32,000 nt of DNA. Source: Microcystis aeruginosa NIES-843. Its GTDB lineage: Bacteria; Cyanobacteriota; Cyanobacteriia; Cyanobacteriales; Microcystaceae. A program made the translations under genes and the position numbers. Position 1 is the first letter of the stretch; every line of letters starts with the position of its first letter. Location: the NCBI RefSeq assembly GCF_000010625.1, contig NC_010296.1:2790001-2822000 (forward strand). The letters run 5' to 3'. A model generated the notes under the pieces. That model saw only the letters and a program-made list of their open reading frames with translations. It had not been told where the DNA came from and did not search any database. Below are positions 4,388 to 21,807 of this stretch, in pieces.

Positions 4388-4428
4388 ATGCTATTCAACC
4401 TCTGATCACGATAGACGAATTAAACCTC

Positions 4429-5278: not shown

Positions 5279-5281
5279 ACG

Positions 5282-6146: not shown

Positions 6147-6277
6147 GGGATAACGCGGGCGATCAATCTCTCAATACTCATTTACTTAATGGATTATTTC
6201 CCGCCAATCTCATCGAAAAACGACTAGAAAAACTCAATACTACCGTTCGACGGGTAGTAAAGGAATGCGAGCGCAGG

Positions 6278-9217
6278 TTGGCGATCGCTGGGTTTATTCT
6301 CCACGATTTCGAGAAATTCCGCTACTCGCTTTTTCCCGCGATGCCGGCGAAATATATCGAGATTAACGAGGACTTCGATCGAGATATCCGCAAACTATCA
6401 CGAGAGGAACATCGAGAGATTTTTCAAGTATTGGTTCCCGAATTAGGATTAGATCGCTTTTTATTTTCCGATCAACCAGAAAAATGGACTGAATATCTTG
6501 ATGATTTGATATACATCGCTAAAAATGCCCAGCGTCGGAATGATACCGATCGAAATACCTCGGAAGATGGGTTAAATACTCGCTTAAACAATAGCGCCCT
6601 CGAAAGTTTAACCGATCTTGCCTGTCTAGCCGATCGCCTCGCATCCATTATTAAACACCCCCACGACGCGGAAAAAGCCTCGTTACAAGACCTTTTATAC
6701 AGCCTCAGCGATGGGGAACTAAAATTTACTTACCACAGCATCGCCGAAAACCGCGGGGTACTGACGAACGTACTTAATAACGCGGTGATGGAAGCACATC
6801 AAGAACTAGACTATCAGCCTTTACTTTACTTGCCTACGGGAGTTGTCTATATCGCCCCCAAAAACGCGCCAGAAGTGTCCCTAGAAACCTTACCGAATCG
6901 AGTGGTGGACACGATTAAATCCCTCTGTAGCGGCGAATTACAGCGTAAACAAACGGGATTCGGTAGAGATGGCAAGGGGATGAAATACGCAGATTACTAC
7001 AGCCAATTTTTCGACGATGCCGGGTTAATGCGCGCTGCCCTCAACGCCACCCTTCGCATCCTCGGTGATAATAAAGCGTCCGTGGCCGGAAGTCGCGGCG
7101 AAAACCTGATTAAATTTCAACAACAGGGCGTTTTACCGACGGATTACGATTTTCATTGTGAAGATGATATCCGCATCGATCGCCTAGCGGAATTCGGGGA
7201 CGTGGTGACGCGGAAAATCTGGGGCGATCGCTTGGGAAAAATCGAACAGGCGCGAAAATTGCAGAAAAACTTACCCGCACCGCCGGATTTAGATTTAATT
7301 AGCGAGATCGCGCATTATTGGAATCTAGAAAATTATCTGCCACAAATTCGAGCGATCAAGCGTATTAATGAATCGTTAAAAGAACTCAAACTGAAAGGCA
7401 ATACGGGAGGGGTTCCCTACGAATGGTATTATCTAGCGGCGCAATACCTGAAACAGCATCCCGGAATCGAGGATATTAGACCGGTTGCAGAAGATTTAAT
7501 CGCTTTTCTCGCCGCAAAAATCGCCGCCATAGTTGCGGGATATAACTTACCCGATGGTTGGGAGGATTTGCGAGAGTGGGTTAATCAAGTGGTGCAGTTA
7601 CCCGGTCGGGAATTGGCCCACTCGATCGAAATCTTCCAGAAAGAATTAAACCACTACAACGCCGCTAAAAAACAAGGTCGCGGCCGTCAACTTCTCTGTT
7701 CGATCTCCCATTCTCCCTATAGTGTCAGCGAACAGATGGAATCGGCGGTTCTTTTTACTCCCCAAGTCTATACCAATAAACAAATGCTGGCAGGCTCGAA
7801 CGCCAAACGAAATATTTCCAGTATCGCGGGAACGGAAATGATGTTGCGTCAGATTCTTATGAATCAAACCCAAGCGGTAGGAAAACGTTTCGAGGACGGC
7901 AAATATCGCTATCTGTACTTTTACCCGACCTATTATTTTACTCCCGAAACCAATAGTTTTTTACAAAAAGCCTACGCTAACATCGCTCAAACTCGTTTTG
8001 ATAGCTCGATAAAGTTGCACTTTGTCGATAAGGATCTAGTCGCTAACTTCGATCGAACCCGTTATCAGAGTGTCGATAGTTTCCTGATCGATGAAAAATT
8101 AAGGCAGAAAAAGGAAACAATTAACGAGGAGGAAGATGGCAAAAAAGACCGCACTTTTAAACTATCCTATCCCGAAGATAAACCCCTAACCTTTTATTTT
8201 ATAGCCCTACCTCCGGGCCGCGATCCCACCGATACGGAATCCTGGGTTATGCCAGCATGGTTAGGATTAGCTTTCCCGATGATTCTAGATGTCAAAACGG
8301 TGGTTTCTGAGTCTCCTATTCCTCCCTATCGCGACGGTGCGGAATTTGAAGAGACGGTATTTCTCGACAGTGCGCCCCAAGCGATCCGGTCCTTAACCCG
8401 ATGCGATCGATTCCGTCTCGATCGAGTCTTGAACCCATGGCAAGATAATGACGGAAAAAAATATCCTGCCCCTCTAAATACCCTCACCGCAGCCTATTCT
8501 ATTCATTTAGACGTGAACTCGAAGCAGGGTAAGACGGGTTATGATCCCAATTGGGGCAAATTAACGGAACTCGCTATCAATTTAGAAACCAGTCCTCTCT
8601 ATGTTTTTCATTACCTTAAACAGTGGAAACGGGGCAAAGATGCCGATATACCGAGCGCTAATCGAATCGCTCTGTATCTCTACGATTTTTATCCTTGTTT
8701 CGATCCCTATGTACAAGCCAACCGAACCAATTTAACTATCGATATGACAGCAGAATCGCCCTTAAATCACCCGAAAAACTTAACCGAATTGTATCGTCAA
8801 TTCTATCGAGCTAATAAACGATATAATCCGAAAGCGAACGCAGTTTTAAAACCGATCGATGTGGCCGCCGATACGATTCTCAAAGGAGGAATGTATCAGG
8901 GAGAAGCCCTAGTTTCTGTAGTAGCGGCGGAAGTGGCCAGCTTAATGAATCGGGTTCATGCTTCTACAGCAGAAGGTCGCTGGATTCTATCCGATCGAGA
9001 ACAGGAAAGACAGAAAATATTGTCTTTTGCTCGTTATTTTGTGATCGATGTGTTCGAGGTTTCTTTTAAGGGCGATCGAGCGCGTCTAGCCGGCAGACAA
9101 TTAAACCTTATTCGCGATACCTGCGAATTTCTTTACCGTCTTGAACAGGACAGAGAAAATCAAGAGTTAAAAGCCCAGGGTCAAACTGTGGATGAAGATT
9201 CTGAAAACAATAATTAA
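6278..9217 (+). CDS. cas10d: Cas10d/Csc3 main body (HD domain + large-subunit core); only a TTG start is available
   Basis: 979 aa. 'FILHDFEKF' and 'KHPHDAEK' are HD-type motifs near the N-terminus. Size and position (between cas3' and csc2) fit the I-D large subunit. Confidence 0.85.
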   Translation: MAIAGFILHDFEKFRYSLFPAMPAKYIEINEDFDRDIRKLSREEHREIFQVLVPELGLDRFLFSDQPEKWTEYLDDLIYIAKNAQRRNDTDRNTSEDGLNTRLNNSALESLTDLACLADRLASIIKHPHDAEKASLQDLLYSLSDGELKFTYHSIAENRGVLTNVLNNAVMEAHQELDYQPLLYLPTGVVYIAPKNAPEVSLETLPNRVVDTIKSLCSGELQRKQTGFGRDGKGMKYADYYSQFFDDAGLMRAALNATLRILGDNKASVAGSRGENLIKFQQQGVLPTDYDFHCEDDIRIDRLAEFGDVVTRKIWGDRLGKIEQARKLQKNLPAPPDLDLISEIAHYWNLENYLPQIRAIKRINESLKELKLKGNTGGVPYEWYYLAAQYLKQHPGIEDIRPVAEDLIAFLAAKIAAIVAGYNLPDGWEDLREWVNQVVQLPGRELAHSIEIFQKELNHYNAAKKQGRGRQLLCSISHSPYSVSEQMESAVLFTPQVYTNKQMLAGSNAKRNISSIAGTEMMLRQILMNQTQAVGKRFEDGKYRYLYFYPTYYFTPETNSFLQKAYANIAQTRFDSSIKLHFVDKDLVANFDRTRYQSVDSFLIDEKLRQKKETINEEEDGKKDRTFKLSYPEDKPLTFYFIALPPGRDPTDTESWVMPAWLGLAFPMILDVKTVVSESPIPPYRDGAEFEETVFLDSAPQAIRSLTRCDRFRLDRVLNPWQDNDGKKYPAPLNTLTAAYSIHLDVNSKQGKTGYDPNWGKLTELAINLETSPLYVFHYLKQWKRGKDADIPSANRIALYLYDFYPCFDPYVQANRTNLTIDMTAESPLNHPKNLTELYRQFYRANKRYNPKANAVLKPIDVAADTILKGGMYQGEALVSVVAAEVASLMNRVHASTAEGRWILSDREQERQKILSFARYFVIDVFEVSFKGDRARLAGRQLNLIRDTCEFLYRLEQDRENQELKAQGQTVDEDSENNN

Positions 9218-9234: not shown

Positions 9235-10242
9235 ATGTCTTTACTGAAAACCCTCAATTCTAAATTCTTTCATAGCGAGATTCCCTACAAACCGATGGGA
9301 AAATACGTTCACTTTTTGACGATTCGAGTCACAGAATCCTATCCTTTATTTCAAACAGATGGAGAGCTAAATAAAGCTCGTGTTCGTGCGGGAATTGATA
9401 GCAAAAAAACGATTAGTCGTTTATCGATGTTTAAACGGAAACAGTCAACTCCAGAACGTTTAGTCGGTCGAGAATTACTCAGAAACTACAAATTAATTAC
9501 CGCCGAAGAATGTGAGTACAATGTAAAATTTGCCATGAATAACCCCGACTGTATTATTTATGGTTTTGCCATCGGTGATTCGGGTTCAGAAAAATCGAAA
9601 GTAGTAGTAGATACGGCTTTTTCGATCACACCCTTTGATGAATCCCATGAAAGTTTTACTTTGAACGCTCCCTACGAGAATGGTACTATGGCATCGAAGG
9701 GAGAGAATGACACAAAAGTAGGAGAAGTGACTAGCAGGATTAACCAGCAGGATCACATCCGTCCGCAGGTGTTTTTCCCTAGTATTGTCACGCTCAAAGA
9801 TCCGACAGAAGCAAGTTTTCTCTATGTTTTTAATAACATCCTGCGTACCCGTCACTACGGCGCGCAAACTACCCGGACGGGACGGGTAAGAAATGAGCTT
9901 ATCGGTGTTATTTTTGCCGATGGGGAAATTGTTAGTAATTTGCGCTGGACACAGGCAATATATGATCGCCTTCCCGATGAAGTATTACACTCGATCGATC
10001 CCTTAGACGAGGATTTAGTTATGGAAAAAGCCACCGAAGCAATACAAGAATTAATGGCGGAAGAATTTATCGTTCATACCGATTTTATCGGGGAAAATTT
10101 TCAACCTTTATTAACTGAGGTGAAAACTCTCACGGGTACGGAAGCAGGAATTTTATCGATCTTGAACCAAGCAGATAAAGAAGCGAAAGACTACGCTAAG
10201 AAACATATCGCCGAGAAAAAACCAGCCGCTCAAAAACCGTAA
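9235..10242 (+). CDS. csc2: Csc2 (Cas7d), type I-D backbone subunit
   Basis: 335 aa. 'NNPDCIIYGFAIGDSGSEKSKVVVDTAFSI' and 'GAQTTRTGRVRNELIGVIFADGE' blocks. AAGGAG lies 7 nt upstream of the ATG. Position after cas10d fits. Confidence 0.85.
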   Translation: MSLLKTLNSKFFHSEIPYKPMGKYVHFLTIRVTESYPLFQTDGELNKARVRAGIDSKKTISRLSMFKRKQSTPERLVGRELLRNYKLITAEECEYNVKFAMNNPDCIIYGFAIGDSGSEKSKVVVDTAFSITPFDESHESFTLNAPYENGTMASKGENDTKVGEVTSRINQQDHIRPQVFFPSIVTLKDPTEASFLYVFNNILRTRHYGAQTTRTGRVRNELIGVIFADGEIVSNLRWTQAIYDRLPDEVLHSIDPLDEDLVMEKATEAIQELMAEEFIVHTDFIGENFQPLLTEVKTLTGTEAGILSILNQADKEAKDYAKKHIAEKKPAAQKP

Positions 10243-10297: not shown

Positions 10298-10972
10298 ATG
10301 GTACATATTTATTCCTGTCAATTAGAACTGCACGATAGTCTTTATTACGCAACCCGTGAAATCGGCAGACTCTACGAAAGCGAACCCGTAATTCATAATT
10401 ACGCGCTCTGTTATGCTTTGGGATTGGTAAATAGCGATAGTTATCGTTACTTCTGTTCCGAACAGATTCCCCAGTACCAAGAACATTTAAATCCTCTTAA
10501 CGAAGAGAAAATTTATGTCACTCCCGCACGGGCGATCGTTCATACGGCGGTTCTCAATACTTGGAAATATGCCAATAATAACTATCATGTGGAGATGGAA
10601 AAAACCCAGAAAAATATTCCCAGTTTTGGCAGGGCAAAAGAAATCGCTCCCGAAAGTGTTTTTGAATGTTTTATCATTTCCCATCACCCCCTACAACTTC
10701 CTAAATGGATTCGTTTGGGAAAATGGATGAGTAAAGCGGAAGTAAAACTGACAGAACTTTCCCTATCAAAACAAAAAGAGGATTTATTTATTTATCCCTA
10801 TCCTTTAAATCCTCTCGATGTTATGTTTACCCATCAGGTGATTGGCTACGATGTGATTAATATGCCTCCCGTTAGTTTGATTCGTAATGTGAGAATGCGC
10901 GGGGAATATTACCAAATAAGCGATCGTCCCGATCTGAAAATTCCCGCTCGATTGTCCTATCGCTTCGGTTGA
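10298..10972 (+). CDS. csc1: Csc1 (Cas5d), type I-D
   Basis: 224 aa. Position directly after csc2. Call rests on conserved I-D gene order and size. Confidence 0.75.
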   Translation: MVHIYSCQLELHDSLYYATREIGRLYESEPVIHNYALCYALGLVNSDSYRYFCSEQIPQYQEHLNPLNEEKIYVTPARAIVHTAVLNTWKYANNNYHVEMEKTQKNIPSFGRAKEIAPESVFECFIISHHPLQLPKWIRLGKWMSKAEVKLTELSLSKQKEDLFIYPYPLNPLDVMFTHQVIGYDVINMPPVSLIRNVRMRGEYYQISDRPDLKIPARLSYRFG

Positions 10973-10978
10973 AAATTG

Positions 10979-11056
10979 ACCATGACTCTTATCTCTTCTA
11001 AACCCCTCACTTTACCGGAATTTTTCTCGCTAACCGCTCCCGAGGGCGATATTACC
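10979..11056 (+). repeat. left 78-bp direct repeat (uma2 start region) bracketing the cargo
   Basis: 74/78 identical to 19916-19993. Homology stops exactly after ...GATATTACC. Confidence 0.9.
10982..11056 (+). pseudogene. 5' fragment (25 codons) of a Uma2/DUF820 endonuclease gene, truncated by the cargo junction
   Basis: Encodes MTLISSKPLTLPEFFSLTAPEGDIT, matching the N-termini of the full copies at 19919 and 21004. Similarity ends at 11056. Confidence 0.85.
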
Positions 11057-11071
11057 GTCGCATCGCACATT

Positions 11072-11929
11072 TTACCCCGATTCGTACTGTTGACGAGATT
11101 TAAATAAAATTTGTTTGATCCGGTTGCGTAATGGCTCTGGTGTAAGTACAATACAGCGATCTCCGTAGGGTAAAATCTCCCGAATTAACCAAAAAGGACT
11201 AGAGACTTTACGGGTTATAATCCTTTTTCCGTTTACCTCTCGGTCGTCGATATCCCTTGTGTTCCTTTCATAGGCCTTCACGAGGTCTTTTTCTAATTGT
11301 AATTGTACTTCTATAAAATCGAGACTGTCTCGCCATGGTTCTTCGATCGGGATCAGGCTTTGAATACGAGAGAATTTAAGACAGCGATTGTGAACAAGCT
11401 CGGGAAAGTCTCGCCTATCTTCTTCTGGCAGATCGACCGTTTCTTCACACCAGATCTCTAGATAGAATTCTTTTTCCCGAAACATGATCTCGGCAGAGCG
11501 AACGGTAAATTCTAGGGTCTGTCCCTGAGAATTTTTGTACATTACCCGAAAAGCTTGCCGGTCATGGATATAGCGCTCCACCGTGAGCCGCCAATCGCGA
11601 TCGTACTGACTCACCTGTTCGGAAATCTCCCGACGCTCTTGAGGGGAGAGATTTCCTCTCTCTAAAAGAAAATTAGAAAGAGTCTGGGCCGGTTCGATGT
11701 GACCCGATCGCACCAGACGGTCGATCGCTTCCTTGATCGCTTCGACCCGCTTTGCCGAGAGGGTAAAAGGTTCACCGATCTCCAGTTCTCCTTCGGCGAT
11801 GGCGGCGATTAGACCTGACGGACTAGGACTTTTCCCCCAAAAGATGTCAAAGCGTCGGGCGATCGCCTCTAGCTTCTCCTTCGTGCCGGGAGGGATTGAC
11901 AGTGTAATTGTTTCTTTTTTGCGATTCAC
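11072..11929 (-). CDS. second RHH-like + WYL-type regulator, paralogue of 670-1533, divergent from the second effector operon
   Basis: 285 aa with GTG start. 'ITLSIPPGTKEKLEAIARRFD', 'EFYLEIWC...NRCLKFSRIQ', 'FWLIREILPYGDRC' are colinear with the first regulator. Confidence 0.7.
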   Translation of the reverse strand: MNRKKETITLSIPPGTKEKLEAIARRFDIFWGKSPSPSGLIAAIAEGELEIGEPFTLSAKRVEAIKEAIDRLVRSGHIEPAQTLSNFLLERGNLSPQERREISEQVSQYDRDWRLTVERYIHDRQAFRVMYKNSQGQTLEFTVRSAEIMFREKEFYLEIWCEETVDLPEEDRRDFPELVHNRCLKFSRIQSLIPIEEPWRDSLDFIEVQLQLEKDLVKAYERNTRDIDDREVNGKRIITRKVSSPFWLIREILPYGDRCIVLTPEPLRNRIKQILFKSRQQYESG

Positions 11930-11942
11930 CTGAAAAATGTAC

Positions 11943-11971
11943 TTGCAATTCTGGAATATTTGTGCTACAAT
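11943..11971 (+). promoter_or_regulatory. near-consensus promoter P1 (-35 TTGCAA, 17 nt, -10 TACAAT)
   Basis: Hexamers at 11943-11948 and 11966-11971. The -10 is half of a palindrome TACAATA-CCTA-TATTGTA (11966-11983). Confidence 0.5.
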
Positions 11972-12223
11972 ACCTATATTGTAATGATAAATGAGCGCAA
12001 AAAGCTATGGTAAGAGGAAATGAGGGGGATATACCACTGACGATGGTTCTGCGTCCGTGTAACCTTTTGTCGGGAACTCGGAAAATATTGATCAGCATGG
12101 TGTCACCGCCACATCGTTGTGGGGAGTTCAGGCGATCTAAAACGGCAGATATCTGAAGTGAACAAAAGGAGACAGAGTAGTATGGACAACCTCATAGACA
12201 AAGATCGCATATTGCCCTGTCTG

Positions 12224-12320
12224 GCTTCAATCCCTAATAGGGATTCGATGAAAAGGCTAAACAGTAGCCTCACGACTTGTCAGGTTTCAATCCCTCTTAG
12301 TATCAGGGGTTCAGTGATCG
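12224..12320 (-). ncRNA. degenerate two-repeat mini-array (psi-repeat / 23-nt spacer / psi-repeat), CreA/CreR-like crRNA gene
   Basis: Minus strand 12320->12284 ends in AGGGATTGAAAC, 12/12 with the array repeat 3' end. Minus strand 12260->12224 contains CCCTATTAGGGATTGAA (17/17) and matches the repeat at 24/37 overall. The spacer is CTGACAAGTCGTGAGGCTACTGT (12283->12261). Confidence 0.6.
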
Positions 12321-12364
12321 ATCATCTTACCATGATATGCTTAAGAGAATGATTTGCTTTTCCT

Positions 12365-12383
12365 GCCTCAGACTTGTCAGGAC
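12365..12383 (-). promoter_or_regulatory. PAM-flanked partial protospacer for the mini-array spacer, overlapping the P2 -35 box
   Basis: Minus strand reads GTC|CTGACAAGTC|TGAGGC. GTC is a type I-D-compatible PAM. Spacer nt 1-10 match exactly, and nt 12-17 match after a 1-nt bulge. Confidence 0.55.
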
Positions 12384-12402
12384 GTAAACAGTGAGCTATA
12401 TT
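12374..12402 (+). promoter_or_regulatory. promoter P2 (-35 TTGTCA, 17 nt, -10 TATATT) heading the 47-aa ORF and the second effector operon
   Basis: Hexamers at 12374-12379 and 12397-12402, each 5/6 to consensus. Confidence 0.5.
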
Positions 12403-12515
12403 AAAAGAAGCCGTTTTGGGGTCGGCTATCTATAGAAAAATTTATGCACTTGCATTATAGCAAAGCTGACCCCAGATGGATACCCACCTCAATCAAAATA
12501 AAATGGAGGTCAGTA

Positions 12516-12659
12516 ATGCCTGCTTTTGACGATATTTACCAGCAAATCGAAATTATTCAAGACCAAATCGAGCTTCTTCAGTGCCAAATCAAAGAACTGA
12601 GGCAGTCTCCAGTCTTGGATTCTGAAGGCGAAGTCAGAATTTTCGATGATTTAACCTAG
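12516..12659 (+). CDS. 47-aa acidic, heptad-like small protein of unknown function
   Basis: GGAGG at 12505-12509, 6 nt before the ATG at 12516. Product is MPAFDDIYQQIEIIQDQIELLQCQIKELRQSPVLDSEGEVRIFDDLT. The track ORF 12444-12659 is the same frame with an SD-less upstream ATG. Confidence 0.45.
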   Translation: MPAFDDIYQQIEIIQDQIELLQCQIKELRQSPVLDSEGEVRIFDDLT

Positions 12660-12746
12660 AATCCCAGCAATAACGCCTCTAGAGAGCGGAAGTAGGCACT
12701 TTTCAGCCTACTCCCTCAAGATAAGAAATCAAGGAAGGACAGCACT

Positions 12747-15431
12747 ATGTCGATTAAACAACTTTCACTTTTCGAGAATGTTCCTCCAGAGCAAGATACA
12801 AAAGCGGTTACGACTTCGGAAGAGATTAGCGAACTTGAAATTACTATCTTATTGAGTGCTTTGACCGCAAATGCGATCGCTCAAACCGACTCGACATTGA
12901 TTTTCGCTTTAGCTGACGATCCAAGAGCGATGGCGATCGCCAAAACTTTTGATCGTCCTAAATTGGTTAGACAGTTACGACTTTCTCAACCCCAAAAAGA
13001 AAGCGAGTTCATTAAACCCACGTTTCAAGGGAATCAAGTTTTTTATCGAGAACGAGAGATAGGTAGGATACAGCTTGTGTACAAATCACCGTCACCGGGA
13101 GAGCTACAAGCAAAATTAACTCATGAAAGCACGATTGATCGGTTTTTAGAGTTTTTGCAAAAAAAATATCAGATTGTTTCCCTGCATGAAAGTAATTACC
13201 ATGTGCAGATTTTTATTCCACAAACTCAACAATCACATAATATAGAGGAGCTTTGGATAGAATTTATCACGAAAGTTATTTTTTCTATCTATGGTGATTT
13301 TCAATATCAGCTATCAGGATTAATGCAAACTTTTATCACAATGCTAAAAAGTGTTACCTTAGCGGGACGAGGTTTTAGCACCCTAGAAATTCCGATAATT
13401 ACCAGAGATCAAGCCAAGGTGTTAGCGGCTTTTTATTTAGCTATTTTCGAGCAAGTAAAGGATCGCCAAGAGAAGCGTGAGACTGAGATCGTTCAACTTA
13501 TTGAGAAAATTAAATCCGAAGAACTTAACTCGAAAGATTTAGAGTCCACTGAAAAGAAGCTAAAAAGCAGGCAGGAAATGCAAGCTAAAGAGTTTAATAA
13601 ATATAGAGATTATTTTCAGAAAGTTTTGTCTAAATTATTATATGAGCAACGAGCTATTTATCATAAGATAAGAACCCTTGACGAGCAGTTAGGAAAAACT
13701 GGTTTGTCAAAAGCTCAAGTTAGCAAATTACAGAAGCAAAAGGATAAAATAGAGTCACAAATTATTTTTCAGGAAGGATCGATCGAGGAGAAGCAGAGAT
13801 TTCTAGAAGAATCAGACGGAAATCCGTTTGAGTTTATAGAAAAACAAAAACAAACAGATCTATTGAAGCCAATTCAGGTGATCGCTAAATCTTTTAACAA
13901 AACGGCCACAGAACAAATTAACTCGACTCGTGGCGATATTTTCACTCAATGTATATTAGAGATGTATCGTTTGTTAGAAAATCCAAAACTCGAAACCATT
14001 CCAGAACCGCTTTTAACGATTAACCCAAAAATTTTAGCAGCAAGGACAGCGGGAGACGATGGTAAAGATTTTTGTTACTCTTGCGGAGTAACTTTAGATG
14101 CTAAAACTGTGCGGTGGAGAGTAGCTAGATTTATGTTCGAGCGACCGTCTCAACGTCGTCAATCATCCTCTAGTGAAGATAGACCTTTCATTTGCTCTTC
14201 TTGTTCTGTATTATCGTTTGCCTCCCCCTTAAAAGTAACGGATGATAGTATTATCTTACGACTCAAGCCTATTCGAGAAAAATCTGGCTATGATGATAGA
14301 GTTAGATTACATAACCTAAAAGAATACTTGAGAGGATTAACTACTGGTGAACTAGATATTACTGCGGGAAAATATATTATTTTAAATTCTCAAAAAGATA
14401 AAACTAACAATGGTGATATCGCTTCTCAAAAATTAGGATTAAAGCAGTACGCTTTAGCCAAGATCGCTTCTAAACTTCCTTTAGAGGTTCTATCGGATTG
14501 GGAAATCGATTTATATTTACAAAAAAGTACACCAGATAAGCTAGAGCGAAGACAACTAATTTTGCTCAAAGGAATAATGGAGGGATATAATCAAAACATC
14601 ATTATTAAAGATGCTAAAACCCAGGAACAAAAAAATGAACACAAAATAAATCTTAAACTAGGAGACGCTATTCGTTATGTACAACAAGATATGCCTTACT
14701 TGGCGGAATTTATTGTATCTGGAGTTCCCGACTACAATCTCAAATTTGAAAACAAGATATGGTTAGAGAGTATTCGAGAACTCTACTGGAAACAAATCAA
14801 TGAAGACGTGAGAAATCAACAACGATCAAAAGGAGTTTATTCTATGTCAGAAACAACAATGTCTAAAAGAGCTAAAATCTATGAAGATGTAGCTGCATTA
14901 ACAGGCTTACTTTATCCCTTTATAGAATGGGCTGAATTTCTTATAAAAAAGGATAAAGAGATGGAAGAAAAACGGAAGCAAGGAAAAAAAGAACAAGATA
15001 ATTTAGATGAAAAAACTATCGATAAAATTAAAAAAGAAGTTGCCAGAGAAATTAGCAAAATCATCGAAAATGTCAAGGATGAGCATTTTTTCACCTACTA
15101 TGCCTCTATTGGAGATCAAGACCGTACTAAAATCAAAGCCACTCTCAAGCGAGATAGAGACACATATTTTATTTACGATCAAGCCAGAAAGTTAATTTTT
15201 GAAAAGCTTAAAATTTCGGAGGATATAGAAGTAAAAAAAGATGGTATCGCATCGTTAAATCTTACTCTTGACGATATTAAAAATGCTTATACTTATTTTG
15301 CAAATGATCCTCTATATACGGATAAACAAGGAGATAAAAACTGGAGGGACTTCACTTATCGATTAAAACTTTCTCTTTATACGCGGTTTCCTGAATTGGT
15401 TCGTAAACTTTCATCTAAAGGAGATAAATAA
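12747..15431 (+). CDS. HD-less type I large subunit (Cas8/Cas10d-like) with a CxxC...CxxC zinc ribbon and long coiled-coil
   Basis: 894 aa, first gene of a coupled large-subunit/cas7/cas5/cas3 operon. 'FCYSCG...FICSSCS'. N-terminal 'KQLSLFEN' parallels 'GQLNLFDN' of the Cas10d N-fragment. AAGGA lies upstream of the ATG. Confidence 0.6.
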   Translation: MSIKQLSLFENVPPEQDTKAVTTSEEISELEITILLSALTANAIAQTDSTLIFALADDPRAMAIAKTFDRPKLVRQLRLSQPQKESEFIKPTFQGNQVFYREREIGRIQLVYKSPSPGELQAKLTHESTIDRFLEFLQKKYQIVSLHESNYHVQIFIPQTQQSHNIEELWIEFITKVIFSIYGDFQYQLSGLMQTFITMLKSVTLAGRGFSTLEIPIITRDQAKVLAAFYLAIFEQVKDRQEKRETEIVQLIEKIKSEELNSKDLESTEKKLKSRQEMQAKEFNKYRDYFQKVLSKLLYEQRAIYHKIRTLDEQLGKTGLSKAQVSKLQKQKDKIESQIIFQEGSIEEKQRFLEESDGNPFEFIEKQKQTDLLKPIQVIAKSFNKTATEQINSTRGDIFTQCILEMYRLLENPKLETIPEPLLTINPKILAARTAGDDGKDFCYSCGVTLDAKTVRWRVARFMFERPSQRRQSSSSEDRPFICSSCSVLSFASPLKVTDDSIILRLKPIREKSGYDDRVRLHNLKEYLRGLTTGELDITAGKYIILNSQKDKTNNGDIASQKLGLKQYALAKIASKLPLEVLSDWEIDLYLQKSTPDKLERRQLILLKGIMEGYNQNIIIKDAKTQEQKNEHKINLKLGDAIRYVQQDMPYLAEFIVSGVPDYNLKFENKIWLESIRELYWKQINEDVRNQQRSKGVYSMSETTMSKRAKIYEDVAALTGLLYPFIEWAEFLIKKDKEMEEKRKQGKKEQDNLDEKTIDKIKKEVAREISKIIENVKDEHFFTYYASIGDQDRTKIKATLKRDRDTYFIYDQARKLIFEKLKISEDIEVKKDGIASLNLTLDDIKNAYTYFANDPLYTDKQGDKNWRDFTYRLKLSLYTRFPELVRKLSSKGDK

Positions 15432-15433
15432 CG

Positions 15434-16327
15434 ATGGCTACCGAATCTAAAGTGACGACTGGACTACCTAAGACTGATGCTAATAAACCTAGATTGCATT
15501 TTGATATTTATGCCATTCTCGAAGGCTCTCAAGAGCTTTACCTAGGACATGAAGTACAGGTTAATGTTAACTTAGTTGAAATCGTTAAACTGAGTACAAA
15601 AGATGGTAAAGAAATTGAAAAATGTTATATTTCTCCGACCAAACGGCGAGGAGTTGAACGACGTTGTTTACTATGGTCTCCTGTGAAAAGTGGAGAGCTG
15701 CTAGGAGATAAACAAAACTGCGGAATCCCGAAAACCTGTGCTGAACCCACTTGTCCGATTTGTGCTACATTTGGCGCACTCGATCCAGGAAAACGGACTT
15801 TAATCGGTCGGGTAACTCATGGTGGAGGTGTTGCCATACAAGAGATTTACCCAGTCGAAAAACAACGAGCAATGCACCCCGCTTTATTGGTCAATCGCAA
15901 TGATGAAACTCCCACACCTTTTAGACGAGAATACAATCAACCTGGCATTCTCTATCCCGTTTATAACCACGCTCTGAGTATCACCGATCAAGACTTTTCA
16001 GCTGTGGCTTATGCTTTCTTAGATTCATTACCTCGCATAGGTTCAGGAAATCCGAAAGGAATTGCTATCGCGGAAACGGACGATCGTACCCCGCTTCTGG
16101 TTTTGGATAGATATTTGTCTCCTAGAGGGAAGCGTCCAATCGTTTCTCCCTCGGAAACCGACCCGCAAAAGGCGATCAATGATTTCCTTTATTTGGCACT
16201 GTATCCTGAAACTAATTTCACTAATCATATTCAAGAAGCGCACTTCGATCGCTGGATAGGCAATGAAGCGTTAGCCAAATTGCAAGAATACTCCGCAATA
16301 TTCGTCGATACAGTTTTACAAGCATAA
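15434..16327 (+). CDS. cas7: Cas7-like (Csc2-related) backbone subunit
   Basis: 297 aa, starting 2 nt after the upstream stop. 'TCPICATFGAL' aligns with Csc2 'PDCIIYGFAIG'. 'LSITDQDFSAVAYAFLDSLPRIG' aligns with Csc2 'VTLKDPTEASFLYVFNNILRTRHYG'. Confidence 0.6.
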   Translation: MATESKVTTGLPKTDANKPRLHFDIYAILEGSQELYLGHEVQVNVNLVEIVKLSTKDGKEIEKCYISPTKRRGVERRCLLWSPVKSGELLGDKQNCGIPKTCAEPTCPICATFGALDPGKRTLIGRVTHGGGVAIQEIYPVEKQRAMHPALLVNRNDETPTPFRREYNQPGILYPVYNHALSITDQDFSAVAYAFLDSLPRIGSGNPKGIAIAETDDRTPLLVLDRYLSPRGKRPIVSPSETDPQKAINDFLYLALYPETNFTNHIQEAHFDRWIGNEALAKLQEYSAIFVDTVLQA

Positions 16328-16330
16328 ATC

Positions 16331-17155
16331 ATGTATTGCCTGACCTTTAAGATTATCCCAACGGCGGCGATGACATTTCGCATACTGCCTGGATCGATTC
16401 TCAATATCGCCACCTATCCCTTCGTCCCACCGACTACTTTTTCTGGGTTTCTCCGACGGATAGTAATGTTAAGCGAGGGATTAGATATCCCTGAAACCAG
16501 CATTAACAAGGAAAATCCGCCTTATTTCACCCTACCTCGTCAGTATATAGCGTTAGGAGCCTATCCAGTCCTAGATAAATGGTCTGGAGTCCATCGTACT
16601 CATCGCAAAGGAACTCGATCGTTTAACCATGATGTTTTTTCTAGACTATACATTGATGGCGATCGAGAAAACTTTCAGTTACACACTTGGGAATATTTTA
16701 TCGCTGAGGAGTTAATCGGCTATGTTGTAAGCGAATCTAAGTCCAGTCTAGAGGCATTTTCTAACCTACAAGGAGTCGGATGTAAAATTGGTAAGGAAGG
16801 ATTTGCGGTGATTGACGAGGTATCTGAATCTATACGACTCCAAAGAAAGATTCTTTCCGCTCACCCGTCAACTGTTGTTCCCATGGAAGCTTTAATACAG
16901 CGAAATCCTTGTATCAATCGTTGTGATATTTATAATCTCTATCGTCATGAATGGTCAGCAGATCAGACTCAAGATGAAGATAAGGGATTGTTCGATACAG
17001 AGCGATCTCCTATTAATGGTTTTATCCCCTTTGTTGCCGCTTACTATCCCGAAAAAGCCAATCCTTTACCCACTTTAGATTTCTATACGGATGGAAATCT
17101 TCAGATTCCTGTAGCACTTGTGGAACTTTTACAAGGAGAATCAATTAATGTCTAA
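16331..17155 (+). CDS. cas5: Cas5-like subunit
   Basis: 274 aa. N-terminus 'FRILPGSILNIATYPFVPPTTFSGFLRR' fits the Cas5 RAMP N-terminal pattern. Position between the cas7-like and cas3 genes. Confidence 0.55.
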   Translation: MYCLTFKIIPTAAMTFRILPGSILNIATYPFVPPTTFSGFLRRIVMLSEGLDIPETSINKENPPYFTLPRQYIALGAYPVLDKWSGVHRTHRKGTRSFNHDVFSRLYIDGDRENFQLHTWEYFIAEELIGYVVSESKSSLEAFSNLQGVGCKIGKEGFAVIDEVSESIRLQRKILSAHPSTVVPMEALIQRNPCINRCDIYNLYRHEWSADQTQDEDKGLFDTERSPINGFIPFVAAYYPEKANPLPTLDFYTDGNLQIPVALVELLQGESINV

Positions 17156-19871
17156 ATCTAACCCTCAACCTTTTTTCAAATTCGGCCGCGTGTTTTTTCC
17201 AGGCGAACCTACAATTGCTCCTGATAAAATTCTTTTTCAACCCCTGGGTAATCATGTAGGTAATGTTAGACAATTAGCTAGAAAATGGCAAGATGGCAAC
17301 TTTTCTTTAGAACGAGTTATTGAAGGAATCAATTTACACGACAAAGCTAAACCACAAACTTTCAAAATTCGCGTTGAAACTAATAAACAGGGAGAGTTTA
17401 CAAAATATACTTATTCATTTAAAGGGCATCGATTTAAAGTAGATGAACCACAAAATCTTTGGGTGCAGGCTCTAGCAAGAGGACATCATGACTATTCAAC
17501 TAAGGAAATTATCAAGGATACCTATCAATTAAAAAAAGATCCTAAATATCAGAAGATTTTCTCTAAAGACCCCTTACAATACGCCAAAGAACTTTATATT
17601 TTGGAAATGTGCGATCAAATTGAAGCGGAATTAGCTTGTCGTGTCATTGGAGACGACGAACAGGCAAAATCTCGCACATTTATGGATTTTACAATAACTA
17701 AAGGTACATCCGAAGATAGCAACCACCGTGTTTTTTATCTCGATCCCTATCCTTTTAAAGAACCAACTATCACTTTAAATTTTCGTTCGTGGACATATAA
17801 CTTGTCAGACGAGGATAAAAATCAACTCCAACAATTACGCGAAAACGGAAAAGATAAGGAATTAGGAGGTAAATTGAATACTCTTGTTAAAGAGTGGTGG
17901 AAAAAAAACGAACATACAATCAGTGAAGATAGAGCAATTACTGCCATTATCAAACCTGATAATTCAAACACTTATTCCCCATCAGAAAAATCAGAAAATG
18001 CAATTTTGTGGTGGTATAGAGAATTAGCGAATTTTCAACCTAATCCAATGCAGGAGCAAGTCTTTCAAACGATGGTTGAAAACAAACATCCAGCTTTTAT
18101 ACTTAAAGCTCCTACAGGAGTGGGAAAATTTGAAGCGATTATTATTCCCTTTTTAGCTATGCTATCTACAAAAGAAGATAGACCTCGCCTGATTATACCC
18201 CTACCTGCACGAAGTTTGTTAGAAGATCAAAAACAGAGATGCGATAAATATTTAAAACAATTTTCACTCCTACACAAAGGACGTGAAGTGTCTTTGGTGA
18301 TAGATACAGGAACCGAAATGAATCGATATGTTTATCTAGATGGAGAAATTAAATCTAGCAATAATTCTCGAAGACATTTATACAAAGGAGATATTATTTT
18401 AACAACGATTGATAAATTTATATATCGATACTTTGGCTATGGTGATAAGCAAAAATCATTCATCTTTCCCTATCGAATTTATCATGGTAATACACTGATT
18501 TGTTTTGATGAAGCTCATACCTATGATGATATTTCGTTTACTAACTTTTGCAGTTTGGTTAAAGCTTTGTATGAAGCAGGACGCTCGCTTGTTTTAATGA
18601 CGGCAACTTTATCACAAAATCATCTGGAAAGATTCGATTATCTTGCGGATAACATGATCGATTACATTGATGTTCAGGACAATCTAGAGAAGCTAAATAA
18701 TTTTTATCAGCAAATTTTGAAGCAAGACTATTCTAATTTAAAACAGTTTGAATGGGTTGATGATATTGTTTATGATGTAAAAGAACCAACAAATTTACAA
18801 CAAAAGTTGACCTCGATAGCCCTTGCAGAATGGAACTCTAACCCAAGCCATCGTATCATTGTTTCTGTAGAAACTGTTAAAGATGCCATAGCAATTTATG
18901 AAAAAATAAAACAGAAATTAAACATTAAATCTTCAGGACAAAATGAATTTTTATTTCTCTACCATGGTCGTTTGTCAGATATTCCCAAAACTTCCCATTA
19001 TTCTCGCACCAATCTTTATAAAAGATTAAAAGAGAGAGATGAAAATGACCAAGCTTATATTCTGGTTACTACCAGTGCGATCGAAGTTGGTTGTGATTTA
19101 AATAGTACCCGTTTGATTACTCAACTGTGTAACCCAGAAAGTTTAATTCAACGAGCGGGACGTTGCAATCGTAAAGGTAATGTTGAAGATGCAAAAATCA
19201 TTGTTATTGGCAATAATATTCCTGAATTTATTAATACTTTAAGCGAGGCAGAGCTAGAGGATTATAAAACAATTCTTAAGGGTTTGCACGCTCGAAACTT
19301 TGATCCGAAAGCGATCATGAATTGTGTTTCTACAAAACAGAAAATTGATGATTATCGAGTTGTTGAGCTTTTTTCCCTGTTGCAAGACTATGTTTATAAT
19401 GCCGATCTCACTTGTCAATCTGCTCATGAAAAAGGATTAGTAATCACCCGTAGCTGGACTCCATCCGTTACCTTGGTATATGATGACGGTAAGCAGGGTG
19501 ATAGTTTAGAAAAAATTGTCAAAGAATCTCCTCAAATTCAAGTCCCCATTGATCGTTTAATCAATAATGAAGGAAATTACACAAATCAATACGCTAATGT
19601 GTCTGTGTACGAATGGATTTACGACAAGGAAGAAACTCGATATAAGTTAGAACCTTTAAAATATTGGGGATGTGCATACAGTAAAGACATGGTGATCAAA
19701 GTCTGTGCAGTTCAGGAGGGAGCCATATATGATCATGAATTAGGGTTTAAAGACTTGCCTAGAGTTTTTATTAAATGCAGATCAAATGGCTATCAAGAAA
19801 GACTTCGGTATAACCCCACAGAAGATAGATCAGTAGTGATTAATTACACTTCTGCTCTAACACAAGATTGA
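17148..19871 (+). CDS. cas3: Cas3 with fused N-terminal HD nuclease and SF2 DEAH helicase
   Basis: ATG at 17148, with AAGGAG 9 nt upstream, overlaps the cas5-like stop by 8 nt. HD motifs: 'NLHDKAKP', 'RGHHDYS'. Helicase motifs: 'APTGVGKF', 'CFDEAH', 'MTATL', 'TSAIEVGCDL', 'QRAGRCNRKG'. Confidence 0.85.
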   Translation: MSKSNPQPFFKFGRVFFPGEPTIAPDKILFQPLGNHVGNVRQLARKWQDGNFSLERVIEGINLHDKAKPQTFKIRVETNKQGEFTKYTYSFKGHRFKVDEPQNLWVQALARGHHDYSTKEIIKDTYQLKKDPKYQKIFSKDPLQYAKELYILEMCDQIEAELACRVIGDDEQAKSRTFMDFTITKGTSEDSNHRVFYLDPYPFKEPTITLNFRSWTYNLSDEDKNQLQQLRENGKDKELGGKLNTLVKEWWKKNEHTISEDRAITAIIKPDNSNTYSPSEKSENAILWWYRELANFQPNPMQEQVFQTMVENKHPAFILKAPTGVGKFEAIIIPFLAMLSTKEDRPRLIIPLPARSLLEDQKQRCDKYLKQFSLLHKGREVSLVIDTGTEMNRYVYLDGEIKSSNNSRRHLYKGDIILTTIDKFIYRYFGYGDKQKSFIFPYRIYHGNTLICFDEAHTYDDISFTNFCSLVKALYEAGRSLVLMTATLSQNHLERFDYLADNMIDYIDVQDNLEKLNNFYQQILKQDYSNLKQFEWVDDIVYDVKEPTNLQQKLTSIALAEWNSNPSHRIIVSVETVKDAIAIYEKIKQKLNIKSSGQNEFLFLYHGRLSDIPKTSHYSRTNLYKRLKERDENDQAYILVTTSAIEVGCDLNSTRLITQLCNPESLIQRAGRCNRKGNVEDAKIIVIGNNIPEFINTLSEAELEDYKTILKGLHARNFDPKAIMNCVSTKQKIDDYRVVELFSLLQDYVYNADLTCQSAHEKGLVITRSWTPSVTLVYDDGKQGDSLEKIVKESPQIQVPIDRLINNEGNYTNQYANVSVYEWIYDKEETRYKLEPLKYWGCAYSKDMVIKVCAVQEGAIYDHELGFKDLPRVFIKCRSNGYQERLRYNPTEDRSVVINYTSALTQD

Positions 19872-19915
19872 TTTTTATCTGGCGCGGGATATGTTCACTA
19901 CACTAAAAACTATAT

Positions 19916-19993
19916 ACCATGACTCTTATCTCCTCTAAATCCCTCACTTTACCGGAATTTTTCTCACTAACCGCTCCCGATGGCGATATTACC
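19916..19993 (+). repeat. right 78-bp direct repeat bracketing the cargo
   Basis: 74/78 identical to 10979-11056. Confidence 0.9.
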
Positions 19994-20485
19994 TATGAAT
20001 TAGTCGATGGAGAAGCGATCCCAAAAATGTCACCGAAATTCTTTCATTCTCGTTTAACTCTGGCTTTATCTTCTATACTCGATCGCTGGAATCAAGGACG
20101 GGGAGAAGTGGGAATCGAATGGGCGATCATTCTCAGCAAAAACGATCGAGATTGGTGTCCGGTTCCCGATCTTCTCTACATTTCCCCGGAAAGGTTAGGA
20201 GATATTCCCCTCACCGATGAAGCTTGTCCCGTTCCCCCGGAATTAGTCATCGAAATTATCTCTCCGGAACAATCTTTCAGCAGCCTGAGCGAAAAAGCCG
20301 TGGACTACCTAAAAGCGGGAGTCAGTCGTATCTGGATCGTCGATCCCCGGGCCAAGCAGATCACAATTTTCTATCCCGATGCACCCCCGGCGATTAAAAA
20401 AGGCGATGACGAAATTAGCGATATTCTCCTCCCCGATTTAACCCTAACCCCCAGACAAATTTTTGCCAAGGCCCGATTAAGTTAA
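19919..20485 (+). CDS. Uma2-family (DUF820) PD-(D/E)xK endonuclease, copy B
   Basis: 188 aa. 'YELVDGEAIPKMSP', 'PDLLYIS', 'PELVIEIISP', 'AGVSRIWIVDP'. Confidence 0.8.
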   Translation: MTLISSKSLTLPEFFSLTAPDGDITYELVDGEAIPKMSPKFFHSRLTLALSSILDRWNQGRGEVGIEWAIILSKNDRDWCPVPDLLYISPERLGDIPLTDEACPVPPELVIEIISPEQSFSSLSEKAVDYLKAGVSRIWIVDPRAKQITIFYPDAPPAIKKGDDEISDILLPDLTLTPRQIFAKARLS

Positions 20486-20576
20486 TGCCCTACAGTCTCG
20501 TTCTCAATCTCACCCCTCGATCGCCGATCTATCCGAATTTTCTCACCGGACGACACCTTCAGGCGCTATTCCTTAC
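20485..20576 (+). pseudogene. cas6: 5' fragment of cas6 (92 bp), duplicated
   Basis: 90/92 identical to 21811-21902. Its ATG overlaps the uma2 stop (TAATG). Similarity ends at ...CCTTAC. Confidence 0.9.
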
Positions 20577-20994
20577 AAAAAGAGGATTTATTTAGGGCTT
20601 GCTGAAAAAGTACGGGCGAAGCATTCGGATAGAAAATCTCCGGTTTCACCGATAGGTTATTGCCCGAATGCTTCGCCCCTACAGGACCCGGGCCGATGAA
20701 GACGCAAGGTTTTGAACGACGATTCTCTCAAAATCTTGCACCTGTTTCGCTCGTAAAGCCCCAAAACCCTTACTTTGCCTACATTTCACATTTATTCAGC
20801 AAGCCCTATTTATCTATCCCTATCCTTTAAATCCTCTCGATGTTATGTTTACCCATCCGGTGATTGGCTACGACGTGATTAATATGCCTCCCGTTAGTTT
20901 AATCCGTAATGTACGAATGCGCGGGGAATATTACCAAATAAGCGATCGCCCCGATCTGAAAATTCCCGTTCGATTGTCCTATCACTTCGGTTGA
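20577..20994 (+). pseudogene. csc1: 3' fragment of csc1 (about 200 bp), duplicated and interrupted by a MITE
   Basis: 20577-20594 plus 20807-20994 align to csc1 10773-10972 with about 10 substitutions, including the stop codon. Confidence 0.85.
20595..20806. mobile_element. about 212-bp MITE-like element
   Basis: Terminal inverted repeats GGGCTTGCTGAA...TTCAGCAAGCCC. Internal perfect 15-bp inverted repeat GGGCGAAGCATTCGG (20614-20628) / CCGAATGCTTCGCCC (20664-20678). Flanked by TATTTA on both sides. Absent from the intact csc1 at the homologous point. Confidence 0.75.
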
Positions 20995-21003
20995 AAATTG
21001 ACT

Positions 21004-21570
21004 ATGACTCTTATCTCTTCTAAACCCCTCACTTTACCGGAATTTCTCTCGCTAACCGATCCCGAGGGCGATATTACCTATGAATTAGTCGATGGAGAAG
21101 CGATCGCAAAAATGTCACCGAAATTCTTTCATTCTCGTTTAACTGGTGCTTTATTTCTCGTACTCGATCGCTGGAATCAAGGACGGGGAGAAGTGGGAAT
21201 CGAATGGGCGATCATTCTCAGCAAAAACGGTCGAGATTGGTGTCCGGTTCCCGATCTTCTCTACATTTCCCTGGAAAGGTTAGGAGATATTACCCTCACC
21301 GATGAAGCTTGTCCCGTTCCCCCGGAATTAGTCATCGAAATTATTTCTCCTGAACAATCCTTCAGCAGCCTGAGCGAAAAAGCCGTGGACTACCTAAAAG
21401 CGGGAGTCAGTCGCGTCTGGATCGTCGATCCCCGGGCCAAGCAGATCACGATTTTCTATCCCGACGCACCCCCGGCGATTAAAAAAGGCGATGACGAAAT
21501 TAGCGATATTCTCCTCCCCGATTTAACCCTAACTCCCAGACAAATTTTTGCCAAGGCCCGATTAAGTTAA
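21004..21570 (+). CDS. Uma2-family (DUF820) endonuclease, copy C
   Basis: 188 aa, nearly identical to copy B. The ATG at 21004 is preferred over the TTG at 20998. Confidence 0.8.
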   Translation: MTLISSKPLTLPEFLSLTDPEGDITYELVDGEAIAKMSPKFFHSRLTGALFLVLDRWNQGRGEVGIEWAIILSKNGRDWCPVPDLLYISLERLGDITLTDEACPVPPELVIEIISPEQSFSSLSEKAVDYLKAGVSRVWIVDPRAKQITIFYPDAPPAIKKGDDEISDILLPDLTLTPRQIFAKARLS

Positions 21571-21807
21571 GTAGGCAGGCGTTAAAAATCATCAGATGCC
21601 CCCCTTATTAAGGGGGATCCCCCCGCCTATCGGCACCCCCCTTATCAAGGGGGGCAGGGGGGATCGACACCCCCCTTATCAAGGGGGGCAGGGGGGATCG
21701 ACACCCCCCTTATCAAGGGGGGCAGGGGGGATCGACACCCCCCTTATCAAGGGGGGCAGGGGGGATCGAAGCTAAAATCCATTTTTAATTTAATTATAAC
21801 CAGCTAC
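21571..21807. mobile_element. 237-bp insertion between uma2 and cas6, flanked by TTAA
   Basis: Absent from the paralogous uma2/cas6 junction at 20482-20487. TTAA lies at 21567-21570 and 21808-21811. Confidence 0.6.
21634..21769. repeat. 4 perfect tandem copies of a 34-bp unit CACCCCCCTTATCAAGGGGGGCAGGGGGGATCGA
   Basis: Unit boundaries at 21634, 21668, 21702 and 21736. A degenerate unit precedes at 21595-21633. Each unit has a C6-TTATCAA-G6 hairpin plus an extra G6. Confidence 0.95.

Follow-up and report, generated by a model that had tools for sequence, protein, structure and literature searches.

A type I-B-family effector cassette within the type I-D CRISPR-Cas locus of Microcystis aeruginosa NIES-843 and its predicted sharing of Cas6, adaptation genes and array

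Genes of the cassette and of the resident type I-D locus

This study deals with a cassette of effector genes that resides within a CRISPR-Cas locus of the cyanobacterium Microcystis aeruginosa NIES-843. A stretch of 32,000 nucleotides of contig NC_010296.1 was analyzed (subsequently designated the window; position 1 is its first letter), in which the cassette occupies positions 11057–19915 and is located between csc1 and cas6 of a type I-D system. It comprises the gene of a WYL-domain regulator (WYLb), a mini-array, an open reading frame (ORF) for 47 amino acids (aa) and four coupled genes, which encode a large subunit, Cas7, Cas5 and an HD-containing Cas3 and thereby constitute a second complete type I effector module. 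An earlier sequence-only reading of this DNA had arrived at the same assignment, and the csc1 end (10972), the cas6 start (21811) and the spacings between the four genes (2, 3 and -8 nt) reported there were confirmed from the ORF coordinates.

The first of the four genes, all of which are on the plus strand, encodes a large subunit of 894 aa (12747–15431), which is matched by the PADLOC profile PDLC01527 (“Cas8b, CAS-I-B”) with 1122.7 bits, residues 28–894 aligning with positions 6–759 of the 759 profile positions. The protein carries a long coiled coil and a four-cysteine zinc ribbon, whose CYSC...CSSC cysteines (C443, C446, C483 and C486) had been pointed out before and are invariant in 27 homologues. 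The second and third genes encode a Cas7b-labelled Cas7 of 297 aa (15434–16327) and a Cas5 (Cas5b) of 274 aa (16331–17155), which are matched by the PADLOC profiles PDLC01388 (461.5 bits) and PDLC01389 (440.1 bits), respectively. The PADLOC CAS-I-B profiles cover Cas8b, Cas7b and Cas5b end to end, and Cas5b is also matched by two independent profiles, Cas5b and Cas5, at 8.9e-9 and 1.5e-3. The subtype, which had been regarded as undecidable from sequence alone, is thus answered by existing CAS-I-B profiles. Moreover, the genes were noted already in 2012 and 2015, i.e. as “predicted cas8a, cas5, cas7, cas3-I” of NIES-843 and PCC 9443 by Kuno 2012, in the rendering given by Yang 2015 (PMC4428289).

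The fourth gene (17148–19871) encodes a Cas3 protein composed of an N-terminal HD nuclease and a superfamily 2 (SF2) helicase. It scores 149.8 bits against TIGR01587, the Cas3 core (cut-off 102.45), and is matched by Pfam Cas3-like_C_2, DEAD and Helicase_C. All motifs listed previously (NLHDKAKP, RGHHDYS, APTGVGKF, CFDEAH, MTATL and QRAGRCNR) were found, the HD motifs LHDKAKP and GHHDYS residing inside the N-terminal 130 residues. The -8 nt overlap with the preceding gene belongs to an ATG at 17148, which yields 907 aa; a length of 917 aa, as given originally, uses a TTG at 17118 and was abandoned. The four proteins are identical to BAG02898–BAG02901 of NIES-843, the first three of which are annotated “hypothetical protein”.

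The proposal that the second gene product is Csc2-like did not hold in direct comparison, in which BLASTP and hhalign detected no significant similarity of Cas7b to Csc2, and stood indirectly through intermediate sequences. An exhaustive search with the Cas7b profile yielded 55 representatives among 1.84 billion proteins, and the remotest full-length relatives match the Cas7b profile, Pfam Csc2 above the gathering score, and Csm3. Because these bridging relatives match all three, the cassette Cas7 is, by way of such intermediates, a remote relative of the Cas7 group of types I-D and III. Direct comparison of Cas5b with Csc1 by BLASTP and hhalign detected nothing significant, and hhalign returned a probability of 0.2%, i.e. 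nothing significant, for the large-subunit family and the Cas10d family.

All four ORFs are full length compared with their homologues, and Cas7b is 98–100% identical across strains. Ratios of non-synonymous to synonymous substitution rates (dN/dS) versus strain W13-11 are 0.05–0.40 across the four genes, and by this measure the cassette evolves under purifying selection. The C-terminal half of Cas8b (residues ~500–850, window 14250–15300) exhibits 22–54% identity between Microcystis strains, the N-terminal half being 90–98% and Cas7b 99% identical in the same strains; the alignments indicate allele replacement or diversifying evolution of the C-terminal half. There is no separate small-subunit gene in the cassette. 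A candidate for an internally translated small subunit (Cas11b, 195 aa, 14844–15431, plus strand) starts at M700 of the large subunit, where the motif AAGGAG is located 8 nt upstream of an in-frame ATG. At least 90% of homologues conserve M700, which may serve as internal start for a Cas11-like protein, as known for types I-B, I-C and I-D (PMC10212523).

The 47-aa ORF (orf47; 12516–12659, plus strand), which possesses a strong GGAGG ribosome-binding site, is heptad-rich, lies between the promoter described below and cas8b and is restricted to Microcystis, where strains differ by in-frame 21-nt indels, suggesting that it is coding. The product of the regulator gene WYLb (11072–11929, minus strand) is matched by Pfam WCX and WYL and by PADLOC WYL (5.5e-14), and the gene precedes cas8b in divergent orientation in nearly all related loci. 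A transposon-associated (CAST) I-B system was considered and rejected, as Cas3 is present and no transposase genes are nearby.

The resident type I-D effector genes are cas3' (1633–3798), cas10d (6278–9217), csc2 (9235–10242) and csc1 (10298–10972), all on the plus strand, with NCBIfam models TIGR03158, TIGR03174 and TIGR03157 matching above cut-off. Divergent from this operon is the gene of a WYL-domain regulator (WYLa, 670–1533, minus strand), the product of which is 36% identical to WYLb and a homologue of which is positioned upstream of cas3' in I-D-only Microcystis loci as well. On the other side of the cassette, cas6 (21811–22644; NCBIfam and Pfam Cas6), cas4 (22647–23240; Pfam Cas4), cas1 (about 23246–24250; Pfam Cas1) and cas2 (24263–24535; Pfam Cas2) are followed by a CRISPR array with the repeat GTTCCAATTAATCTTAAACCCTATTAGGGATTGAAAC (24769–32000), all on the plus strand. 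The array has 100 repeats inside the window and continues beyond its end. Two tandem MntA/HepT toxin-antitoxin pairs, matched by the MntA/HepT models, are located between cas3' and cas10d (3968–5716, plus strand), toxin-antitoxin genes being reported as enriched in gaps of this kind (PMC10120712), and a perfect 65-nt tandem duplication is present just upstream of cas10d (6017–6146). Directly upstream of cas6, positions 21595–21798 are taken up by a G/C-rich hairpin unit of 34 nt (CCCCCCTTATCAAGGGGGG...), which is repeated ~5 times in tandem. These units are absent from the Microcystis locus L050, where Uma2 abuts cas6, and may serve to insulate or terminate transcription.

A common chassis and the csc1-Uma2-cas6 slot

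A scan for the Cas7b family in one genome per species yielded 43 loci, almost all of which are cyanobacterial. In ~25 loci from many cyanobacterial genera the cassette stands alone, i.e. without I-D genes upstream, and exhibits the order WYL (minus strand)-cas8b-cas7b-cas5b-cas3, followed within 30–100 nt by cas6-cas4-cas1-cas2 and an array. The repeats of these loci are 37 nt in length and end with CCCTATyAGGGATTGAAAC, which places them in the repeat family of the window, and their arrays comprise up to 48 spacers beside the adaptation genes. The idea that the cassette recreates a complete I-B-like layout in the window is in agreement with this native order.

A scan for Csc1 relatives added 80 further loci, most of which are ordinary I-D operons with csc1 directly followed by cas6. 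In neighbor-joining trees of Cas6, Cas4 and Cas1, the I-B-cassette loci and the I-D loci are interleaved. On the Cas6 tree, 18 changes of effector type were counted by Fitch parsimony as compared to 19.8 after label permutation, and several pairs of an I-B and an I-D locus possess Cas6 proteins that are 94–95% identical. Effector types are scattered at random over the Cas6 tree. Interleaving, Fitch counts and near-identical Cas6 pairs therefore argue that the chassis formed by Cas6, the adaptation genes and the repeat is common to type I-D and this I-B family, and that exchanges of the effector module were numerous.

The nested I-D plus I-B layout recurs in two Nostoc genomes (L026 and L027) and in one further lineage (L086), and in Prochloron the order of the two modules is reversed. 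Within Microcystis the same position is occupied in several ways. The I-D-only loci L050, L051, L056 and L060 have the order csc1-Uma2-Uma2-cas6, and I-D-only Microcystis strains share the identical repeat (PMC4428289; PMC11855584). Loci L053 and L061 are arranged as the window, with I-D genes, WYLb and the I-B cassette. Strain W13-11 (L002) is I-B only and has no I-D genes; its repeat is identical to that of the window, its cas2 100% and its cas6 92% identical. Upstream of its cassette (L002 4286–5777), it retains a cas3 C-terminal fragment (82% identical), Uma2 and fragments of the cas6 start, the csc1 end and the Uma2 start, which are a record of earlier modules in the slot. Finally, in L101 and L052 a first I-D set and an identical WYLb junction are followed by a second, divergent and complete I-D set (L101 1753–8404; L052 about 13300–16400), which according to PADLOC consists of Cas3d, Cas10d, Cas7d and Cas5d in L101, and the Cas10d and Csc2 proteins of which are 28% and 47% identical to those of the first set. 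As a separate observation, cas3' and cas10d of L055, L056 and L060 are 57–67% identical to the window genes (1633–9217), and csc2 and csc1 are 95–98% identical; at the sequence level, the Microcystis I-D effector genes are mosaic.

The limits of the cassette (11057–19915) coincide with an insert between direct copies of Uma2. On its left, the initial ~80 nt of a Uma2 gene (10975–11056, plus strand) are broken after GGCGATATTACC, and a second copy of these ~80 nt adjoins the right end (19916–19997, plus strand). The two flanking copies are ~95% identical, and the direct repeats of the scar are 94–98% identical. The breakpoint GGCGATATTACC/GTCGCATCGCAC, which joins the Uma2 fragment to the WYLb end, is identical in the window and in L002, L053, L061, L101 and L052. 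The cassette is not placed directly upstream of cas6, as had been assumed, since a recombination scar consisting of a duplicated csc1'-Uma2-cas6' segment (19916–21570, plus strand) intervenes. This scar is composed of Uma2A (19919–20485), a cas6 5' fragment (20485–20577), a 168-nt filler (20578–20745), a csc1 3' fragment (20746–20994) and Uma2B (20998–21570), all on the plus strand. The joint between the cas6 and csc1 fragments separates the tandem Uma2 units even in the I-D-only locus L050 and is present in L002, too. G+C content is 0.33–0.38 in the cassette as compared to 0.45–0.50 in the I-D and cas6-cas2 genes. Because of the flanking repeats, the identical breakpoint, the cas6'/csc1' joint and the lower G+C content, the data point to acquisition and reshuffling of the cassette by homologous recombination at a repeated csc1-Uma2-cas6 slot, presumably through a Campbell-type or unequal-crossover event. 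The 168-nt filler contains a long inverted repeat (GGGCGAAGCATTCGG ... CCGAATGCTTCGCCC) and is possibly a small mobile palindromic element.

The mini-array and its predicted target

The insert had been described as devoid of a repeat array. It does contain a degenerate mini-array of two units with a spacing of 60 nt (12222–12320, minus strand), whose role is probably regulatory. Pseudo-repeat 1 (12284–12320) ends with GGGATTGAAAC and is followed by a pseudo-spacer (CTGACAAGTCGTGAGGC..., 12246–12283) and by pseudo-repeat 2 (12222–12245), which departs from the 19-nt repeat core at 1 position; all three are on the minus strand. This element is the sole repeat-like copy outside the main array in the window and is conserved among six Microcystis loci. 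At its start, the pseudo-spacer is identical over 10 nt to the minus strand of positions 12371–12380, which are preceded by GTC (12381–12383) as candidate protospacer adjacent motif (PAM), and this GTC is invariant in six Microcystis strains. The best promoter-like site of the intergenic region (TTGTCA-17-TATATT, 12374–12402, plus strand; 10 of 12 matches) resembles a sigma-70 promoter and is directed at the orf47/cas8b operon; its -35 box lies inside the predicted target. Across strains, the Microcystis pseudo-spacer and its target vary partly in step.

Similar elements are present in at least 8 loci besides Microcystis, and many related cassette loci lack a mini-array. Three of them, L013, L018 and L017, are stand-alone I-B loci of other genera. 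In L013 and L018, the seed matches its target at 10 of 10 positions outside position 6, the sole mismatched one, which is the base flipped out by type I complexes, and the PAM is GTC; in L017, the seed matches at 9 of 10 positions and the PAM is GTT. In L018 and L017, the small RNA is equipped with a promoter and terminator of its own. In the window and in all three of these loci, the seed target is located 94–117 nt from the mini-array on the cas8b side; in the window and in L013, target and -35 box of the cas8b promoter overlap, the box of L013 reading TTGACA. By our own estimate, a 10-nt seed match with a GTN PAM is expected by chance in such a region with a probability of ~1e-4 per locus. 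A chance match was rejected, as the geometry of seed, PAM and promoter recurs in four genera.

Taken together, the mini-array probably mediates CreR-type autorepression of the cas8b promoter, as predicted from seed, PAM and promoter positions, and is a new example of a known mechanism, since CreR/mini-array autorepression was described for several type I subtypes (10.1101/2023.03.10.532045; PMC10120712). As in CreR mini-arrays, two degenerate repeats flank a pseudo-spacer, the PAM-proximal ~10 nt of which match the effector promoter beside the cognate PAM. It differs in its location on the opposite strand between the WYL gene and cas8b, in the unit being shortened to 49–61 nt and in that either of two effector complexes could load the crRNA-like RNA (crRNA: CRISPR RNA) in the nested locus. 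Cyanobacterial examples of this mini-array family are not included in the main text of 10.1101/2023.03.10.532045 or PMC10120712. In Microcystis, the I-D system recognizes a GTH PAM (PMC7648086), and judged from the mini-array targets the I-B variant appears to read the same PAM as I-D, as spacer sharing would require.

Two effector modules and their proposed use of one array

NIES-843 possesses a single set of 12 cas genes and three arrays, all with one repeat (Yang 2015 Table 3, PMC4428289). As there is a single cas set and a single repeat type, a functional cassette has no other Cas6, adaptation genes or array to use than the shared ones. In agreement with the sequence-only reading, cas6, cas4, cas1 and cas2 are absent from the insert. 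The same Cas6 lineage occurs with either effector type. We consider it likely that the cassette encodes a second, functional effector drawing on the Cas6, adaptation genes and array that also serve the I-D system, whereby sharing of crRNAs is inferred from the genomic arrangement. The previous idea that the cassette borrows these components is right for NIES-843 and one-sided for the family, which normally owns such a chassis. With the chassis being the native partner of the cassette family, neither module would simply be a parasite of the other.

In the proposed scheme, a cassette of a cyanobacterial I-B-family variant, i.e. WYL regulator, mini-array, cas8b, cas7b, cas5b and cas3, would have entered the csc1-cas6 slot of an I-D locus by homologous recombination at the Uma2, csc1 and cas6 junction repeats. 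The I-B Cascade and the I-D complex would take up the same crRNAs, processed by Cas6, and a common Cas4-Cas1-Cas2 machinery would supply spacers with GTN PAMs to both effectors, so that one array would feed two machines, namely Cas10d-HD plus Cas3' (I-D) and Cas8b-Cascade plus HD-Cas3 (I-B). Expression of the cassette would be controlled separately by its own WYL regulator, and the crRNA-like RNA of the mini-array would direct Cascade to the cas8b promoter at its -35 region, giving autorepression, as the 10-nt seed would be too short for cleavage.

Several results weigh against a functional, array-sharing effector. Neither Pfam, searched to E = 10, nor NCBIfam returned a relevant match for Cas8b, Cas7b or Cas5b, and sequence and family-profile searches against PDB chains detected no relevant match for the three proteins; as there is no relative among solved structures, no link was found to any characterized I-B Cascade. 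An AlphaFold2 model of Cas8b had a predicted local distance difference test (pLDDT) score of 76 and retrieved no match from the PDB by Foldseek (best E = 0.7), and the predicted role of Cas8b as PAM-reading large subunit is based on profile label and synteny. PDLC01527 was probably built from the same cyanobacterial family, and membership in Cas8b therefore rests on such a profile. The corresponding model of Cas7b, made from 22 close homologues, reached a pLDDT of 31 and was unusable. The PAM of the I-B variant is derived from mini-array targets alone, a mismatch at seed position 3 is present in 4 of 6 Microcystis strains, and the 35 spacers of the I-B-only strain W13-11 have no protospacer in phage or plasmid collections.

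One may also assign the roles the other way round, with cas6-cas4-cas1-cas2 and the array belonging to the I-B cassette and the I-D genes being an orphan add-on. Across cyanobacteria the cassette normally resides directly upstream of exactly these genes, W13-11 carries cassette, cas6-cas2 and array without I-D genes, and loci L001 and L015 have no I-D effector genes between WYLa and WYLb. However, 12 of 14 Microcystis strains are I-D-only and the extra genes occur just in NIES-843 and PCC 9443 (Yang 2015, PMC4428289). Furthermore, the G+C content of cas6-cas2 (~0.50) resembles that of the I-D genes cas3' and cas10d and not that of the cassette (0.35), and the Uma2 repeats bound the insert in a csc1-Uma2-cas6 framework that is found in insert-free form as well. 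As the chassis is shared, ownership is largely a matter of wording, and we regard reversed roles as improbable. We regard it as very improbable that the cassette is what remains of an earlier I-B system, now silent or in decay and with no part in immunity. Annotation of three Cascade genes as hypothetical proteins, the recombination scars and gene fragments around the cassette, and the cas3 C-terminal fragment in L002 would fit a relic, but such a relic is difficult to reconcile with four full-length ORFs under the constraint noted above (dN/dS of 0.05–0.40), preserved translational coupling, intact catalytic HD and helicase motifs, Cas7b conservation across strains and a conserved regulator and mini-array.

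The least plausible alternative, which we deem highly improbable, is a CreTA-like arrangement, in which the cassette would work only with its own mini-array as a module for transcriptional control or addiction and would not use spacers of the main array. Such a function is suggested by the partial seed match of the mini-array to the promoter and by the small orf47 downstream of the targeted promoter. Yet a complete HD-helicase Cas3 is retained, stand-alone cassettes adjoin arrays of up to 48 spacers and adaptation genes, the mini-array is wholly missing from many related loci, and orf47 is Microcystis-restricted. A functional second effector that shares the array thus remains the preferred explanation.

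Canonical type I-B systems are those of Haloferax, Clostridium and Synechocystis PCC 6714, the Cascade structure of the latter being solved (PMC11096372). Like these, the cassette has a large subunit without HD domain, Cas7, Cas5, a single Cas3 with HD and helicase domains and no separate cas11, Cas6 and Cas4-Cas1-Cas2 are encoded beside the array, and the repeats end with ATTGAAAC. In contrast to the canonical order cas6-cas8b-cas7-cas5-cas3-cas4-cas1-cas2, cas6 follows cas3 here, and cas6, cas4-cas1-cas2 and array are not the cassette's own in the window, being shared with I-D. Further differences are a divergent WYL regulator and a mini-array upstream, the lack of detectable sequence relation to the solved proteins, with Cas8b also lacking a structural match, and a Cas7 whose nearest outside relatives are Csc2 (I-D) and Csm3. 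Type I-D of Microcystis (TiD, PMC7648086) and Synechocystis has in common with the cassette the same repeat, interchangeable Cas6 and Cas4-Cas1-Cas2, a GTH/GTN PAM, a WYL regulator and a distantly related Cas7, whereas the cassette has no Cas10d, carries HD on Cas3 and not on the large subunit and has a Cas5 of the Cas5b kind.

Sharing of Cas6 and arrays is also known from multi-effector genomes such as that of Pyrococcus furiosus, which combines two complexes of type I with one of type III-B, and type III systems can use type I crRNAs. In such genomes, one repeat family, one Cas6 and one adaptation set likewise serve several effector types. Here, two DNA-targeting type I effectors lie in tandem in one operon-like locus, each with its own WYL regulator, and were apparently stacked by recombination at conserved junctions. 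Composite CRISPR loci were discussed previously (PMC10120712), and hybrid loci were counted, without being analyzed, in a 2025 cyanobacterial review (PMC11903412). Accordingly, the cassette itself and the sharing of arrays by effectors are already known; what is new is the evidence for swapping and stacking of modules. In the literature, we found no description of I-D/I-B interchangeability on one chassis, of the recombination slot or its second I-D occupant, or of a mini-array in this I-B family.

The repeat of the host is also present in Microcystis phages, where it follows a TTGACA-17-TATAAT promoter. Phage Ma-LMM01 has three copies, with the last base changed from C to A, which are separated by spacers of 36 and 33 nt (L130 1453–1700; NC_008562.1 about 35,700–35,960; annotated only as “56 bp repeat unit”). 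MaMV phages have two perfect copies with a spacer that is the reverse complement of a stretch of their own promoter (MaMV-CH01, L131 1445–1615; PP681321.1). These repeats are candidates for a phage mini-array or an RNA anti-CRISPR, and no paper linking Ma-LMM01 or MaMV with mini-arrays was found. Spacer 2 of Ma-LMM01 (GGGCATTTACTTA...) finds a match of 12 of 13 nt, flanked by a GTA PAM, at 20478–20490 (minus strand) of the window, i.e. at the Uma2-stop/cas6-start junction, and also at 11256 and 11906 in L050; in I-D-only strains this site is the real cas6 start. Our own estimate for a match by chance is roughly 0.01, and phage-directed silencing of cas6 could be considered on the basis of this weak match.

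As an extension of the preferred explanation, I-D and I-B-family effectors may be plug-compatible and become stacked at a dedicated csc1-Uma2-cas6 slot, the second one serving as an autorepressed backup that reuses the whole spacer memory. This idea is tentative, and on present evidence we consider it unlikely. Titration or inhibition of Cascade, e.g. by anti-CRISPR proteins or by the repeat-bearing mini-arrays of the Microcystis phages Ma-LMM01 and MaMV, would activate the backup.

If both complexes load the same crRNAs, one spacer archive would serve two nucleases of different mechanism. To escape, a phage would have to defeat both effectors, which would help to explain the coexistence of Microcystis with phages bearing copies of the host repeat. 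Effector modules that are swappable on a constant chassis of Cas6 and adaptation genes, with the junctions located, bear on the modular evolution of CRISPR systems. Finally, genome editing already makes use of the Microcystis I-D system, and the second effector would be a ready-made complement, offering unidirectional Cas3 activity with the same guide format and the same PAM.

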